A stretch of 64,000 nt of DNA from an uncultured bacterium (GTDB lineage Bacteria; Desulfobacterota; Deferrimicrobia; Deferrimicrobiales; Deferrimicrobiaceae). The stretch is taken from the NCBI GenBank assembly GCA_963741515.1, contig CAVUIA010000004.1, forward strand, positions 67-64,066, written 5' to 3'. Both the position numbers and the translations under genes were made by a program. Under the pieces are notes generated by a model. It was given only the letters and a program-made list of their open reading frames with translations, searched no databases and was not told the DNA's origin. Positions 26,685 to 34,683 of this stretch are shown in pieces. Numbering within the stretch: position 1 is the first letter of the stretch; the number at the start of each line of letters is the position of its first letter.

Positions 26685-28227
26685 GGCTTGCCGTCCTCCG
26701 GGGGCAGGAGCGCTTCGAGCGCCTGGCGTGCGATTCCCACGATCGCCTCGCGGTCCTCGTCGCTCAACGTGTCGGCCGATTCCAATCGTTCCCTTACCTC
26801 GCCGGAAATCTTCCCTGCCGCCTGGCGGACGGCCCCCTCGGCCTCCTTCATGCGGTCCAGCGGAATCCCGTCGAATAGCCCGGCGGTCAGCGCCAGCAGC
26901 ACGGCGATCTGCGCCGGCATGGGTACCGGGGAGGATTCCGACTGGATGAGGCAGGCGCGGATGCGCCGACCGTGCTCTATGATGCGCTGGGCTTCCTCGT
27001 CCATGCGGGCGCCGAACCGGGAAAAGGTCTCGCGCTCCTCGAATTGCGCATAGCCGAGCTTCAGGTCTCCCGCCGCCGCCCTGTACGGTGCGCGCTGCGC
27101 CTTCCCGCCGACCCTCGATACGGATTTCCCGACATCGACCGCGGGCAGCACACCCAATCCGAACAGCGACGGCGAGAGGAAGACCTGCCCGTCGGTGATG
27201 GAAATCAGGTTGGTGGGGATGTAGGCGGATATGTTCTGGGCCTCGGTTTCGACGATGGGCAGCGCCGTGAGCGAGCCGCCGCCGAGTTCCTTGCGCAGAT
27301 GCGTAGCGCGCTCCAGCAGCCGCGAGTGGATATAGAAGATGTCGCCGGGGAATGCTTCCCGGCCGGGCGGACGGCGCAGCAGCAGGGAAAGCTCCCGGTA
27401 GGCGCGGGCGTGGTGGGTAAGATCGTCGTAAACGATCAGTACGTCGCGCCCCCGCTCCATGAAATGCTCCGCGACGCTGGTGGCGGCGTACGGGGCGATG
27501 TAGGCGAGACCCGGCGGGTCGTTGCCCTCGGTCACGACGACCACGGTGTGGCCCATCGCGTCTTTTTCCCGCAAGGTCGCAACGACCTTCGCCAGGGCGG
27601 ACGACCGCTGACCGATGGCGCAATAGACGCACAGGACATCCTGGCCGCGCTGATTGAGGATGGTGTCGATAGCGATGGCGGTCTTGCCCGTTTGCCGGTC
27701 GCCGAGGATCAGCTCCCGCTGGCCGCGCCCGATCGGAATCAGCGCGTCGATGACTTTCAGCCCGGTCTGGAGCGGCACGGTGACGGGGGCGCGGTCCATG
27801 ATGTGCGGGGCGGGCCGTTCGATGGGCAGGCGCCCGTCCGCGGCGACCGGTCCATGGTCGTCGAGCGGCCGCCCGAGCGGATCGATGACGCGTCCCAGCA
27901 GGCCATCGCCCACGGGCACGTCCATTACCCTGCCCGTGCGCTCGACTTCATCGCCCGCGTTCAGGCGCCAGTATCCACCCAGCAGCACGACCCCGATTTC
28001 GTCCTCGTCCACGTTGAAGGCGATGCCGAACACATCTCCGGGGAATTTCAGCAATTCGTCGGAGCCCACGCCGGGAAGGCCGGAGACGCGGGCGATCCCG
28101 GTGGAAACACTCGTCACCGTTCCCGCCTCGCGCGGCGTTATCCGCGGCATGACCGCTTCGCGCCCCCGGCGAATGCCTTCGAACGCGCGGTCGAACGCCC
28201 CTCGCAGGATTTCGGGCGGCTGCGTCA
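26681..28227 (-). CDS. atpA: N-ATPase (F-type) alpha subunit
   Basis: Walker A GDRQTGKT. Alpha-subunit-specific regions. Confidence 0.9.
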
Positions 28228-29025
28228 TTTGGCCTGTCCGGATGACGCCGGATCGTTCCCGGGTTGCGGTTGTGCCTTTATCAGGTCCCCCACGCTTTTT
28301 TCCAGGGACGCAAGGTAACCCGCGATGCTCCAGGCGACTTTCCGCCCGTTCGCGGACAGTTCGATCCCGCCGATCACCTCCGGCGTCGTCTCGAACCGGG
28401 CGCGGATCCCCTCCGGGAAGATTTGGCCGATCGCCTGTTGGATCGCCTCCTGCTGCTTCGCCGGCAGGCCGAAGGCGCTGCGCACGATCACCGGCTCCTC
28501 CGCCGCGCGAAACCCCTCGACGAGATCCTTCTTCGCCGCTTCGTCCAGTTCCCGCAGGCGGCGCACGAACACATCGCACATGCTCTCTTCCAGGCCCGCC
28601 CCGGCGAGATCGTTCAGCGTCTTTCGCGCGATGGCGAAAACCTCCTCGCGGGTCCTGCGTGCGATTTCCTCTTCCAGGCCCTGTTGCTCGCGCAGCAATG
28701 CTTCCTGCCGCCTGGCCCGTAGGGCATTCGCGTCCTTCCGCGCCTCCTCGACGAGGCGCTCCCTTACGGCCCGGGCCTCGTCCCTCGCCTTGTCTAACAG
28801 GTCCTCGCGCTGCCGGTCGAACTCCCTGCTCTTTTCCCGGAACGCGTCGCGCTCTTTTCCCGCTTCGGCTTTCCTCGAGTCGGCGTCCGCCAGCTCTCCG
28901 GCGATCTTCTTTTCCCGCGCGTCCAGGGCATCGAGGACGCGCTTGTAGAGAAAACGCTTCAACAGCCACACCAGGACGATGAAATTGAGCGCCTGGGCAC
29001 CGACGGTGAACCAGTCGATGAGCAT
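28225..29025 (-). CDS. atpF: N-ATPase subunit b with a delta-like C-terminal domain (b-delta fusion)
   Basis: N-terminal TM and coiled coil [30 protein letters not shown]... The C-terminus ...[30 protein letters not shown] resembles the delta C-terminal domain. No separate atpH gene is present. Confidence 0.75.
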
Positions 29026-29029
29026 GAGC

Positions 29030-29311
29030 CTACTTCCCTCCGGTTTGCGCGATGACGTGATTCCAGAACGGATTTGCGAATATGAGTATCAGCGAGACCA
29101 CGAAACAGTAGATGGCCACGGATTCGATCATCGCCAGGCCGATGAACAGCGTACGGGTAACGGTGGCGGAGGCGTCGGGCTGCTGGGCCAGCGAGGTCAG
29201 AGCCGTCGATACCGCGCGCCCTTCGCCCAGCGCCGGGCCGATGCAGCCGATGGATATGGTGAAGCCGGCGGTGACAATGGAGGCTACCGCGATGAATGTC
29301 ATGCTGTCCAT
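29030..29311 (-). CDS. atpE: N-ATPase c subunit with the complete Na+-ligand set (Q...ES..Y)
   Basis: LAQQPDAS in helix 1 and AMIESVAIYCF in helix 2. Aligns with the I. tartaricus Q32/E65/S66/Y70 positions. Confidence 0.8.
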   Translation of the reverse strand: MDSMTFIAVASIVTAGFTISIGCIGPALGEGRAVSTALTSLAQQPDASATVTRTLFIGLAMIESVAIYCFVVSLILIFANPFWNHVIAQTGGK

Positions 29312-29342
29312 GAGATCTCCTTCGGATGTTGATGTCGTGGTT

Positions 29343-30038
29343 TCAACCGTCGCTCCCGGGTTTCGATTTTGTCTTTTCGACGCGCGTGGCGGCCGCGATG
29401 TAAACCGTGGCCAGGATGAAGATGATATAGGCCTGCACCATTCCGGTGAGCAGGCCGAGCGCCGTCATGACGATCGGAAATACGAACGGCGTTATGGCCA
29501 GCAGGATCCCGATGATCATCGCCCCGCTCATCATGTTTCCGAACAGACGCACGGCCAGCGCCAGCGTGCGGGAGAATTCGCTGATGATATGGAACGGCAG
29601 CATGATGAACGTCGGACGTATATAGGACTTGAGGTAGTTGCCCAGACCGCCTTCCGAGATGCCGAACAGCGGCACGGCAACGAACACGCACAGCGCCAAT
29701 GCCGCCGTGGTCGAGAGCGATCCCGTCGGAGGCTCGTAGCCGGGAAAGATGGTGCAGAGGGCCGCAAGGGCGACGAACAGGAAGAGCGTACCCAAAAAGG
29801 GGATAAATTTCCTCGGGTGGCGGAGACCCACTTCCGCGGTTTGCTCCTCGATCATGGAGACGATGACTTCCAGCAGGTTCTGCCAGCGGGAACGCTTGAG
29901 ACCGGTGGACAGTTTTCTCGTAATGAGCATCGAGCCGACGACCAGGACGAGCATCAGCGCCCAGGTGAAGACGATGGTGGCGTTGATCTTGAAAAACCCG
30001 TGTTGCCAGAAGATGATCTCGTCTGGGCTAAGGCGCAC
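29343..30038 (-). CDS. atpB: N-ATPase a subunit
   Basis: Five or six TM helices with the conserved Arg in ...ALAVRLFGNMMSG... Confidence 0.85.
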   Translation of the reverse strand: MRLSPDEIIFWQHGFFKINATIVFTWALMLVLVVGSMLITRKLSTGLKRSRWQNLLEVIVSMIEEQTAEVGLRHPRKFIPFLGTLFLFVALAALCTIFPGYEPPTGSLSTTAALALCVFVAVPLFGISEGGLGNYLKSYIRPTFIMLPFHIISEFSRTLALAVRLFGNMMSGAMIIGILLAITPFVFPIVMTALGLLTGMVQAYIIFILATVYIAAATRVEKTKSKPGSDG

Positions 30039-30354
30039 AACCGACCCCCTTCTCCGGGAGGTTACGGCGTCCGACCGGCGGTCCGGTCAGCCGCGTCACG
30101 AGGACACGCGCGATGGCGAACCCCACCAGACACGCCAGCAGGCGCGTCCAATGTCCGCGCCCGACGTAATAGAAACCGGCCAGGGCGATTCCCATCCGCA
30201 GCAACAGGCTGCAGGAGAACCAGACCGCCGGCTGCCTGGACGAAACGCCTTTCCGCACCGTCCACCACAGTCCGCCGAAGAACATTGCGCCGAGCAGAAG
30301 GCCCGCCGCCAGGACCGCCGCCAGGATCACCGTCTCACTCATCTCCCGCGTCAT
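30028..30354 (-). CDS. atpR: N-ATPase accessory membrane protein AtpR
   Basis: About 100 aa, 3 TM, GGLWWTV motif and an intramembrane Arg. Its position between atpQ and atpB is diagnostic of N-ATPase operons. Confidence 0.7.
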   Translation of the reverse strand: MTREMSETVILAAVLAAGLLLGAMFFGGLWWTVRKGVSSRQPAVWFSCSLLLRMGIALAGFYYVGRGHWTRLLACLVGFAIARVLVTRLTGPPVGRRNLPEKGVGCAP

Positions 30355-30671
30355 CCTCCCGTTCGTCCCGCATGGCCTTGTCTTCCCGGGTCACCCAATA
30401 CCACGCATTCCAGCACCCGATCGCGAGGCCGGCGATCAGCAGCGCCAGCGTCCAGGAGCGGGCCCCCGGGTAGCGCCGGTCCAGCCAGACCCCGAGCGCC
30501 GTCCCAAGAAGCGCCGGAACCGCCACCGACCAGCCGACCAGGCCGATCATGCCCAGGCCGAACCAGACGGTCCGCGTGACATGCCGGCGCGCGCGAATCT
30601 TGCGCGCCGCCTTTTTCCCGACCTCCTTGCCGAGAAGCGGCCCCGGCATCCCCGGCTTTTTTTCGGGTCCG

Positions 30672-30679
<8 letters not shown>
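30335..30679 (-). CDS. atpQ: N-ATPase accessory membrane protein AtpQ (AtpZ/AtpI-like)
   Basis: 114 aa, 2 TM, basic N-terminus. Follows epsilon. Confidence 0.65.
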
Positions 30680-32712
<2,033 letters not shown>

Positions 32713-33187: not shown

Positions 33188-33404
33188 GTCAGCCTCCTTG
33201 CGATGCAAAGAGTGTCTTCCACTGCACTGTTTCCGTTTTCAAGGAACCTGCACGCGGTGATCGGTCCACCTCCATCTTAATGTGAAAAGCCACTGACCTG
33301 CCCCCGTTTTTCAACCAACAGGATGCGTGGTCGTCAGCGGCCATCCCTGGCCGCTCATCCTCGCTCTTCGCTTGGCGGCGCCCTTGTCGTAATTACCCGG
33401 GTGA

Positions 33405-33421
33405 GCGGGGGGAGTCGAACC
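33405..33421. repeat. 17-nt direct repeat of the ssrA T-arm/acceptor core (gcggggggagtcgaacc), 270 bp downstream of ssrA; att-like scar
   Basis: Identical to 33675-33691. The flanks diverge. The copy does not fold into a tRNA-like T-arm (CAUGG compared with GGGGG). Confidence 0.55.
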
Positions 33422-33594
33422 ATGAGCCTACGCCCAGCCAGGGCTTGCCCCAAGGTATTTCGTCGCGGGGTACCCCAGGGAGCGCAGTTCGTCGGGGAGT
33501 GGGGCCGGCCGATGGGGCGGGGCTCGGGGCTGACGCGCTCCCGTGCGTCGCGCTTTTCCTCCCTATCCGGTCGGCGCCCCTCGCCCGTTCGCCT

Positions 33595-33682
33595 CCCCCC
33601 GCCTCCACCAAGCGCAAAAAAAAGCCGACCATCTCGAATTGAGAGGTCGGCTTACTCGACTGCGCTTGGTGGAGGCGGGGGG
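33595..33682. repeat. perfect 21-bp inverted repeat (CCCCCCGCCTCCACCAAGCGC) formed by the ssrA 3' end and an inverted copy, flanking the ssrA terminator hairpin
   Basis: 33595-33615 is the exact reverse complement of 33662-33682. The 46-bp spacer contains the terminator. Confidence 0.7.
33616..33661 (-). terminator. rho-independent terminator of ssrA
   Basis: Minus strand reads GCCGACC-loop-GGUCGGC followed by U8. Confidence 0.7.
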
Positions 33683-34017
33683 AGTCGAACCCCCGTCCGA
33701 GAATTCTAGCTAAGGGCTACTACGTGCGTTTCCGGTCATTTGGATCTCGTCGTCGGGGACCCCGGCCGGCAGGGTTCCCGTCTGACCATCCCGGCTTGAA
33801 TTTCGCCTTACGGCCCCCCGGGAGGGAGCTTGGGGCTATCCCGTAACGGTGACCCCCTTGCGCTTATACGGGCATTCAGCGGTCGGAGGCAGGCAGCTAA
33901 GCTGCCTGAGCTAACGGATAGTCGTTGGCGACTATTGGTTTCCCGTTTTTACGAGGTTCAGGGCCTCGGCACGCAACCCAGAAGCGTCGACATCCCCGTC
34001 GAAACCGTTTCGCCCCC
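33667..34017 (-). ncRNA. ssrA: tmRNA (SsrA); predicted tag peptide ANDYPLAQAA
   Basis: 5' end GGGGGCGAAACGGTTTCGACGGGG. 3' end GGACGGGGGTTCGACTCCCCCCGCCTCCACCA. Tag reading frame gcc aac gac tat ccg tta gct cag gca gct tag. smpB is adjacent. Confidence 0.85.
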
Positions 34018-34188: not shown

Positions 34189-34683
34189 TTAGTCCCGGGC
34201 GACGTCCCGTTTCCCGCGGCCGCGGACGACCCGCTCGATGTCCCGCTGGGCGTCCCGTTCCGCGATGTCGTGCCGCTTGTCGTACAGTTTCTTCCCCCGC
34301 GCCAGCCCCACCTCCAGCTTGACGCGGGGCCCCTTGAAATACATCTTCAGCGGGATGACGGTGAAGCCACGCTCCTTGACTTTCGCGTGCATGTAGCTGA
34401 TTTCCTTGCGATTCAGCAGAAGTTTGCGGACCCGCAGCGGGTCGATGACCCGCAGGTCGCCGTGGGAATACGGGGTGATGTGTACGTTTTCCACGAACAC
34501 CTCGTTCTCGCGGAAGGAGGCGAAGCCGTCGGCGATGTTGACCCGCCCTTCCCGGATCGACTTCACCTCATACCCCTGTAGCGCCAGCCCGCACTCGAAG
34601 GTCTCGATAATCTCGTATTCGTGCCGGGCGCGACGGTTCGTGGCGACCACCTTCACCCCGGCTGTTTCGGTCTTTTCGGCCAT
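34189..34683 (-). CDS. smpB: SsrA-binding protein SmpB
   Basis: ...NRRARHEYEIIETFECGLALQGYEVKSIR...; C-terminal basic tail. Adjacent to ssrA. Confidence 0.9.
   Translation of the reverse strand: MAEKTETAGVKVVATNRRARHEYEIIETFECGLALQGYEVKSIREGRVNIADGFASFRENEVFVENVHITPYSHGDLRVIDPLRVRKLLLNRKEISYMHAKVKERGFTVIPLKMYFKGPRVKLEVGLARGKKLYDKRHDIAERDAQRDIERVVRGRGKRDVARD

Follow-up and report, generated by a model that had tools for sequence, protein, structure and literature searches.

The ssrA Locus and Its Terminator Palindrome

The window, by which we mean the whole 64-kb stretch of DNA analyzed, carries on its minus strand the tmRNA gene ssrA, which lies directly downstream of smpB and just upstream of an N-type ATPase operon (28225-32541, minus strand; table 1). 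Four of the ATPase genes are assigned by Pfam, and the open reading frames after AtpR resemble the a, c and b subunits by translation only. In a SmpB search the window groups with Deferrimicrobium/Deferrimicrobiaceae-like metagenome-assembled genomes (SmpB identity 79-88%), and exact-protein look-ups with smpB and the Usp gene yielded no closer strains. Deferrimicrobium-like bacteria correspond to the MBNT15 lineage (PMC9386147).

Table 1. Features at and around the ssrA 3′ end in the window.
Feature	Position	Strand	Basis
smpB, directly upstream of ssrA	34189-34683	minus	Pfam SmpB
ssrA (tmRNA gene), tag peptide ANDYPLAQAA	33667-34017	minus	ARAGORN; Rfam RF00023 tmRNA, 181.5 bits
P-left, final 24 nt of ssrA, T-loop G53 to CCA	33667-33690	minus	
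Arm 1: ssrA T-loop, T-stem 3′ strand, acceptor 3′ strand, CCA and 6 nt of trailer (AGCGCA)	33661-33690	minus	repeat finder
Rest of trailer and intrinsic terminator	33616-33660	minus	read from sequence
Terminator stem; inner stem	33645-33651 x 33624-33630; 33641-33644 x 33632-33635	minus	
Terminator loop; T8	33636-33640; 33616-33623	minus	
Arm 2 (P′): reverse complement of trailer, CCA, acceptor 3′ strand, T-stem and T-loop; GAAC end	33587-33616	minus	repeat finder
Body, first part: nested hairpins	33506-33590	minus	family profile, motif search, covariation
Invariant block GCGACGCACGGGAGC within body	33537-33551	minus	
Optional 60-nt internal module GCCCCACTCCCCGACGAACTGCGCTCCCTGGGGTACCCCGCGACGAAATACCTTGGGGCA, one copy in window	33446-33505	minus	
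Last hairpin and right junction of body, AGCCCTGGCTGGGCGTAGGCTCATG	33422-33445	minus	alignment with family members
P-right: direct copy of ssrA 3′ end; GGTTCGACTCCCCCCGC exact, then decayed acceptor (TCACCC)	33399-33421	minus	
Candidate truncated variant second body copy (AAGGGCGCCGCCAAGCGAAGAGCGAGGATGAGCGGCCAGGGATGGCCGC), directly after P-right	33330-33392	minus	similarity by eye, unscored
ATPase beta subunit	31051-32541	minus	Pfam
ATPase epsilon subunit	30672-31061	minus	Pfam
ATPase_gene1 protein	30335-30679	minus	Pfam
AtpR	30028-30354	minus	Pfam

The initial annotation of this locus described a 21-nt inverted copy of the ssrA 3′ end across a 46-nt spacer that holds the terminator. This structure is real, and it lies inside longer arms: the two inverted arms span 30 nt each, are 97% complementary and are separated by 44 nt (repeat finder), with a sole mismatch at 33592, in the T-loop part, which leaves a perfect run of 24 nt (33593-33616 with 33661-33684). 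The spacer holds the hairpin GCCGACC-TCTC-AATTC-GAGA-T-GGTCGGC followed by T8, that is, a G+C-rich hairpin and T-run directly 3′ of the gene (33616-33651), as expected of the intrinsic terminator of ssrA; a simple terminator scan missed it because its stem is bulged. The initial annotation had also proposed that the region be folded. The predicted RNA fold of 33575-33700 has a free energy of -90.9 kcal/mol, compared with -51.9 +/- 3.5 kcal/mol for shuffled sequences (z = -11.1), and the arm duplex far exceeds chance expectation. In both RNA and DNA folds the terminator hairpin forms the tip of one long stem.

A Direct Copy and a Conserved Body Downstream of the Inverted Arm

It had been assumed in the initial annotation that the locus lacks an ordinary direct att duplication. 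This premise does not hold, as the T-loop/T-stem sequence GGTTCGACTCCCCCCGC (17 nt) recurs with 100% identity and in direct orientation at 33405-33421, at a spacing of 270 nt (repeat finder). The copy to which it belongs, P-right, is also complementary to P′ (94%; repeat finder), and a heavily base-paired conserved stretch of ~190 nt separates the inverted from the direct copy of the ssrA 3′ end. We interpret P-right in the window as the displaced original 3′ end, similar to an attR. It consists of the 17-nt patch identical to ssrA beside a decayed acceptor, whereas L132, the closest relative, retains the family-typical junction, and the patch looks like a conversion patch.

The stretch between the two copies contains a body of nested hairpins. 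An nhmmer search with the family profile described below detects the body in the window at E = 5e-16, as the sole copy in the 64 kb, and in the alignment the right-junction consensus of the family ends in ...GGCTCAGGCGGGC. The optional 60-nt module has GCCCC...GGGGC ends and a central GGGGTACCCC palindrome in the window, L009, L085, L098 and others, and it may sit on either side of the last hairpin. The segment directly after P-right may be the remnant of a tandem array, judging by eye from its similarity to the body and to the arrays in L004 and L132. L132, L004, L090 and L097 contain longer arrays of the variant, which end in additional T-loop copies.

One Layout behind Six tRNA and tmRNA Genes

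A motif search with the body retrieved more than 120 metagenome stretches, and the body profile gave 144 matches across 120 loci; labels of the form L001 denote the loci of relatives and of family members in genome and metagenome assemblies. Copies were assigned to a gene if an annotated gene lay no more than 130 nt upstream, which was the case for 64 of them: Leu-CAA (18), Met(CAT) (11), tmRNA (11), Leu-CAG (10), Ala-CGC (9) and Leu-GAG (5). The remaining copies are mostly tandem second copies, copies behind tRNA or tmRNA genes that ARAGORN did not call, or copies at contig edges. The same architecture is evident in at least 64 independent loci of Deferrimicrobium-like (MBNT15) genomes and metagenomes. 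Its order is constant: the gene, a trailer, the terminator hairpin, the complement of the trailer, the inverted 3′-end copy with its GAAC end, the body, P-right and then unrelated flanking sequence. In each gene type P-right spans from midway along the T-loop exactly to CCA, although it is often decayed or truncated, as in the window. The length of the unit is quantised at 110-120 nt or at ~60, 120 or 180 nt above this, in step with a body of 113-118 nt and zero to three modules of 60 nt, and both body sequence and quantised length are the same at six different genes. A derived variant without trailer and hairpin also exists.

The comparison of ssrA 3′ flanks among relatives, which the initial annotation had suggested, revealed the layout of the window (terminator, inverted arm, a sequence of ~115 nt and direct copy) in L004, L009 and L010. 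At ssrA the element is old and has been conserved among relatives at the species level, which a function maintained by the host could also explain. The inverted copy is a conserved internal part of a unit found behind six tRNA and tmRNA genes, not the one-off, strain-specific scar considered at first. Tandem arrays are present in L004, L081 and L098, with three units in tandem behind ssrA in L004. In other relatives islands lie directly after ssrA, among them one in L002 with a P4-type tyrosine integrase. Contigs of L001, L012, L006, L013 and L132 end at or inside the ssrA 3′ end or the terminator palindrome, and this structure systematically breaks short-read assemblies.

Several loci depart from the common layout. 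In L010 (5017-5241) the ssrA element ends in a right copy of the tRNA-Leu(CAG) type and the flank of the Leu locus L159. Either elements from two loci have recombined here, or repeats have caused a misassembly close to the end of the contig. At a site ~2.8 kb downstream of ssrA in L091, the customary run of trailer, terminator, inverted arm and body comes after an odd 3′-end-like GGTTCGAATTCTTTGCGACCGTGTCCACCA; together with L120, L149 and L082, this locus suggests another type of island, whose crossover close to the extreme 3′ end moved the unit away as a whole. L014, a family-level relative without the body, carries after its ssrA terminator (2340-2420) a sequence, CTGGTGCTCCATGTAGTCCGTCG, that resembles the tRNA-Leu-type inverted arm TGGTGCTCCATGGGGACTCGAAC and may be a remnant. 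A second, unrelated family of small palindromes (GCCTTCGCTCAAAAGCATG...GCGAAGGC, or CACCATCCTTCGCTCCTTCGGAGCTTCGGATGGTG) is inserted exactly after CCA, namely after that of ssrA in L003, L005 and L011 and after tRNA-Ala/Leu copies in L135, L152, L112 and L121. The open reading frame that follows it in L003 and L005 is GIY-YIG-like by eye, and L011 has the unit twice in tandem.

The Inverted Arm Follows the Adjacent Gene

All 64 copies assigned to an upstream gene possess a homolog of the inverted arm, and the arm's inner 11-13 nt (T-loop and T-stem strand) equal those of the adjacent gene in almost every case. In most copies a bubble of 4-6 mismatched nucleotides, often the recurrent CCATGG, lies over the acceptor strand, and past this bubble complementarity restarts and continues through CCA into the locus-specific trailer. 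No tRNA 3′ end matching CCATGG was found in the loci fetched. Complementarity between the trailer and its counter-trailer extends to 164 of 203 positions, compared with 85 +/- 8 after permutation, and there are at least eight different trailer sequences, each with its own complement. Because the complementarity runs past CCA into the trailer, the template was the gene or a precursor and not the mature tRNA.

Independent cases of a full match between the arms come from Leu-CAG (L138, L144), Met (L173, L181) and Leu-CAA (L196) and from the window, and other tmRNA lineages have mismatches over the acceptor or over CCA. The near-perfect arm of the window is one extreme of a continuum, and L132, from an independent assembly, bears the same arm variant. 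In L145, L081, L128 and L010 P-left and P-right differ, and there the inverted arm takes the sequence of the copy next to the gene; the T-loop of L145, for example, has GACC at the gene and AAGT at the far end. Such a pattern would follow from a joint arrival of the gene-side copy, the terminator and the arm, with the far copy as the original, now displaced. Moreover, trailer and terminator are homologous among the Leu-CAG, Leu-GAG and Met loci, and the left part has therefore moved with the body.

Evidence for Insertion

Empty sites can be recognized among relatives. The flank found after P-right in L166, L130, L156 and L094 joins ssrA directly in L007, and the flank after P-right in L189 resembles the flank directly after ssrA in L143. 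The two direct copies thus delimit a unit that is present or absent as a block. This falls short of proof of site-specific excision, because the 21-nt direct repeat also permits loss by homologous recombination. As at att sites of tRNA and tmRNA genes, a distal direct repeat is found (17 nt exact and 270 nt downstream in the window; T-loop to CCA throughout the family), and presence or absence changes exactly at the repeats, for which homologous recombination between them remains the alternative.

No recombinase, in contrast, was found encoded by or linked to the element, which contains no open reading frame. Clustering of the open reading frames near the elements gave only orthologous host genes upstream, with no integrase, transposase or recurrent protein, and the integrases at ssrA in relatives belong to other islands. 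Scans of viral contigs for the body and the right end gave no convincing copy, the 15-mer matches being consistent with chance and the one weak partial match coming from L201; nor was a circular or free form seen. Constant terminal inverted repeats together with short direct target-site duplications, which would define a MITE, were not found either: the terminal arms vary with the adjacent gene, and the sequences outside the arms are inverted rather than direct.

AT-rich foreign sequence abuts TTCGACTCCCCCC (ssrA T-loop) in L087 (~700-746) and L154 (~840-884). This junction is the distal end of a different island, at the same T-loop position and upstream of the mini-element. The tandem arrays and the T-loop junctions of unrelated islands show that the position is an active recombination site.

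A Probable Miniature Element in the T-Loop

The anatomy of the locus, the existence of the family, its covariation and the presence or absence of the unit as a block are documented here. Going further, we favor on balance the view that the unit is a miniature, integrase-less, att-flanked element inserted in the T-loop. The inverted copy in the window is then probably, if with considerable doubt, the left terminal arm of a non-coding element of ~265 nt lodged in the T-loop of ssrA. The initial annotation had linked the inverted copy to att-type recombination at ssrA and had argued that simple integration would not produce it, and both points agree with this view.

Entry would have been by site-specific recombination in the T-loop, as practiced by the islands that target tRNA and tmRNA genes, and, because the element encodes no protein, by a tyrosine integrase supplied in trans. 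The element would supply a replacement 3′ end, the terminator and the inverted arm, pushing the original 3′ end to the far side, and the present ssrA 3′ end and terminator may hence be element-borne. P-left and P′ are predicted to form a long hairpin around the terminator, usually with a small mismatch bubble. This hairpin could be the attachment site of the element in folded form, comparable to attP(+) of the CTX phage and attC of integrons; by this analogy our leading, if speculative, idea is that the inverted arm makes up one half of such a folded site, and an integrase-recognised site at the palindrome is plausible and the leading inference. Short-patch conversion or quasi-palindrome correction may keep the arms matched to the adjacent gene, with the window copy as an almost fully matched extreme of this process, and conversion after retargeting could have produced the arms for six different genes. 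A circular or attP junction would read the body end GGCTCAGGCGGGC joined to GACTCCCCCCGCCTCCACCA-AGCGC, and an empty site would read the ssrA CCA joined to GGGTAATTACGAC.

Alternative Explanations

The main rival, which we regard as rather unlikely, is a structured RNA maintained by the host, that is, a small RNA linked to tRNA genes. In read-through or co-transcripts P′ would pair with the gene 3′ end and trailer as a processing helix, in the mature RNA P′ and P-right would close a helix around the two-domain body, and the arms would match the gene because both helices must be kept. A secondary structure of the body is indeed conserved and backed by compensatory changes: RNAalifold recovers 33 pairs in eight helices, 12 of the 33 pairs have changes on both sides, 97.6% of the cells in the named structure are paired compared with 88.9% in shuffles, and the covariation score is 0.257 compared with 0.094 in shuffles and at most 0.052 with the partners slid. 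An invariant hairpin loop of 11 nt, the covariation between trailer and its complement, the conservation at orthologous loci across species, and the variant without terminator, which would be co-transcribed, also speak for an RNA. In 65 distinct copies, mismatches of the G-U type (16) are as rare as those of the A-C type (11), so that there is no RNA-strand signature and no overall excess of G-U; one single pair (columns 108/135), with nine G-U on the gene strand, counts in favor of RNA. Such counts would suit DNA palindromes in which the two arms are kept the same, or else an RNA very rich in G+C.

Further observations weigh against a structured RNA. Neither a strand signature, nor a promoter or terminator of its own, nor a curated family was found: Rfam at permissive thresholds, applied to the window region and five family loci, returned only tmRNA/tRNA and sub-threshold noise from microRNA-precursor hairpins, and the promoter scan detected no conserved promoter. 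In most copies, the window included, a strong terminator with its T-run stands between the gene and P′. Where P-left and P-right differ (L145, L010), P′ follows P-left, which breaks the closing helix, and P-right is frequently decayed or truncated, as in the window. The arrays and the exact duplication from T-loop to CCA would also be left unexplained.

It is improbable that the units are neutral scars of past island integrations in the T-loop, reshaped by palindrome extension and gene conversion around the terminator hairpin. Such a history would suit a lineage in which the T-loops of ssrA and tRNA genes are integration hot spots, as well as the visible conversion patches (the window P-right compared with the L132 junction) and the arm mismatches at different positions in different lineages. 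The decay of unrelated islands would not, however, yield the same quantised length and sequence at six genes, nor a trailer and terminator homologous between different tRNA loci.

We give still less credence to a safety or processing device for ssrA, in which read-through would create a ~30-bp duplex that sequesters CCA or makes an RNase III site. A read-through duplex, already raised in the initial annotation, is physically possible, given the very stable predicted hairpin (z = -11), and complementarity that extends into the locus-specific trailer would be in keeping with it. Yet P′ is absent from terminated transcripts, most family copies have the bubble over the acceptor strand, and the duplex explains neither the body, the direct copy (P-right) and the arrays nor the distribution over several genes.

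Very improbable is an invertible switch, in which a recombinase would flip the 44-nt terminator segment between inverted att-like cores. A pair of such cores does flank a short segment, but hairpin and T-run have the same orientation in all of the at least 64 loci, which leaves the inversion scar or invertase switch of the initial annotation without support; moreover, no invertase lies nearby, and inversion of a nearly palindromic segment would change little. Although contigs of relatives break at or inside the hairpin (L001, L012, L132), the fold-back assembly artefact suspected at first is refuted and can be given practically no weight, as unique sequence borders the repeat on either side in the middle of the 64-kb window, its spacer is asymmetric and one position is mismatched, and the layout recurs at no fewer than 64 independent loci, across dozens of genome and metagenome assemblies made independently, L132 with its identical arm variant among them.

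Comparison with Known Systems

Like the islands at tRNA and tmRNA genes, which are served by P4-like tyrosine or by serine integrases, the element would restore its target gene by an element-borne 3′ end. The ssrA islands of Dehalococcoides form tandem units with 20-bp direct repeats and insertion midway along the T-loop, and some of them, which lack integration genes, have been proposed to be cis-mobilizable (PMC3146451). The family shares with them a direct 3′-end repeat of ~20 nt at the far boundary, arrays after ssrA and units without integration genes. Unlike tRNA and tmRNA islands, its unit is ~190-400 bp long and non-coding, one body family occurs at six tRNA and tmRNA genes with arms tailored to each, and an internal inverted att-like copy accompanies a body of nested palindromes.

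A likeness to CIMEs and MITE-like derivatives of integrative elements lies in the attL- and attR-like repeats, the lack of a recombinase and the presumable dependence on a helper. CIMEs as described are products of decay that measure kilobases and belong to a single att site, whereas the present family is uniform, tiny, structured and multi-target.

In folded attachment sites, such as CTX attP(+), used via XerCD, and integron attC, two inverted target-like sites on either side of a short spacer can fold into a hairpin with a central bubble. After integration of the CTX phage, according to what Val and co-workers are said to have described in 2005, a hybrid-site junction lies next to a complete inverted copy, and tandem arrays are common. 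Inverted target-like sites and a stem with a central unpaired region are likewise found here, in predicted RNA and DNA hairpins, with a 4-6-nt bubble between two perfect segments in most copies and nearly none in the window. Unlike CTX attP(+) and attC, the family has no dif or attI target and no link to XerCD or IntI, its target being the tRNA T-arm, and the likeness is one of predicted folds.

The family also resembles REP, BIME and REPIN sequences in being non-coding nested palindromes after genes or terminators, with arms that evolve in concert and no G-U strand signature. REPINs differ in that they are not tied to tRNA 3′ ends, have no target duplication and number from tens to hundreds of copies. 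For the present family no transposase of the RAYT type was found. An IS200/IS605-type element or guide-RNA scaffold was dropped as a candidate for want of TnpA/TnpB and of an Rfam match, and a convergent tRNA-like gene for want of T-stem pairing upstream of the inverted arm. As in the primer-binding sites of retroviruses and LTR elements, the arm is the complement of the 3′ ~18-24 nt of a specific tRNA, CCA included; no reverse transcriptase, however, belongs to the family, and a primer-binding site was rejected since the complementarity runs into the trailer.

The family is a small non-coding palindromic element that seems to be undescribed: a literature search on tRNA-associated repeats in related bacteria found no description of it, and only the paper on Dehalococcoides ssrA islands was relevant (PMC3146451).

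Implications

Integration at tRNA and tmRNA genes is among the commonest routes of horizontal gene transfer. The integrators known from these genes are kilobase-sized islands with their own integrase and usually a single target. The unit described here is non-coding, measures ~200 bp and sits behind six tRNA and tmRNA genes, with arms fitted to each. It might represent a new class, either of protein-less integrators with a folded-hairpin attachment site and retargeting among T-arms, or of tRNA-linked structured RNAs that mimic the acceptor and T-arm of their neighbor, although we hold this possibility only tentatively. As integrators, the target 3′ end and its inverted copy around the terminator would act in the manner of attC or CTX attP(+), and retargeting would take place among tRNA genes with a shared T-arm, the arms being re-templated from the new target.

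For work on this uncultured phylum the practical consequence is that the hairpin interrupts assemblies at ssrA and tRNA genes, and that the additional 3′-end copies can pass for island boundaries. If the element is mobile, it would define the minimal cis-requirements for integration in the T-loop, show the retargeting of att sites, and point to a hairpin attachment site outside integrons and Xer-dependent phages.
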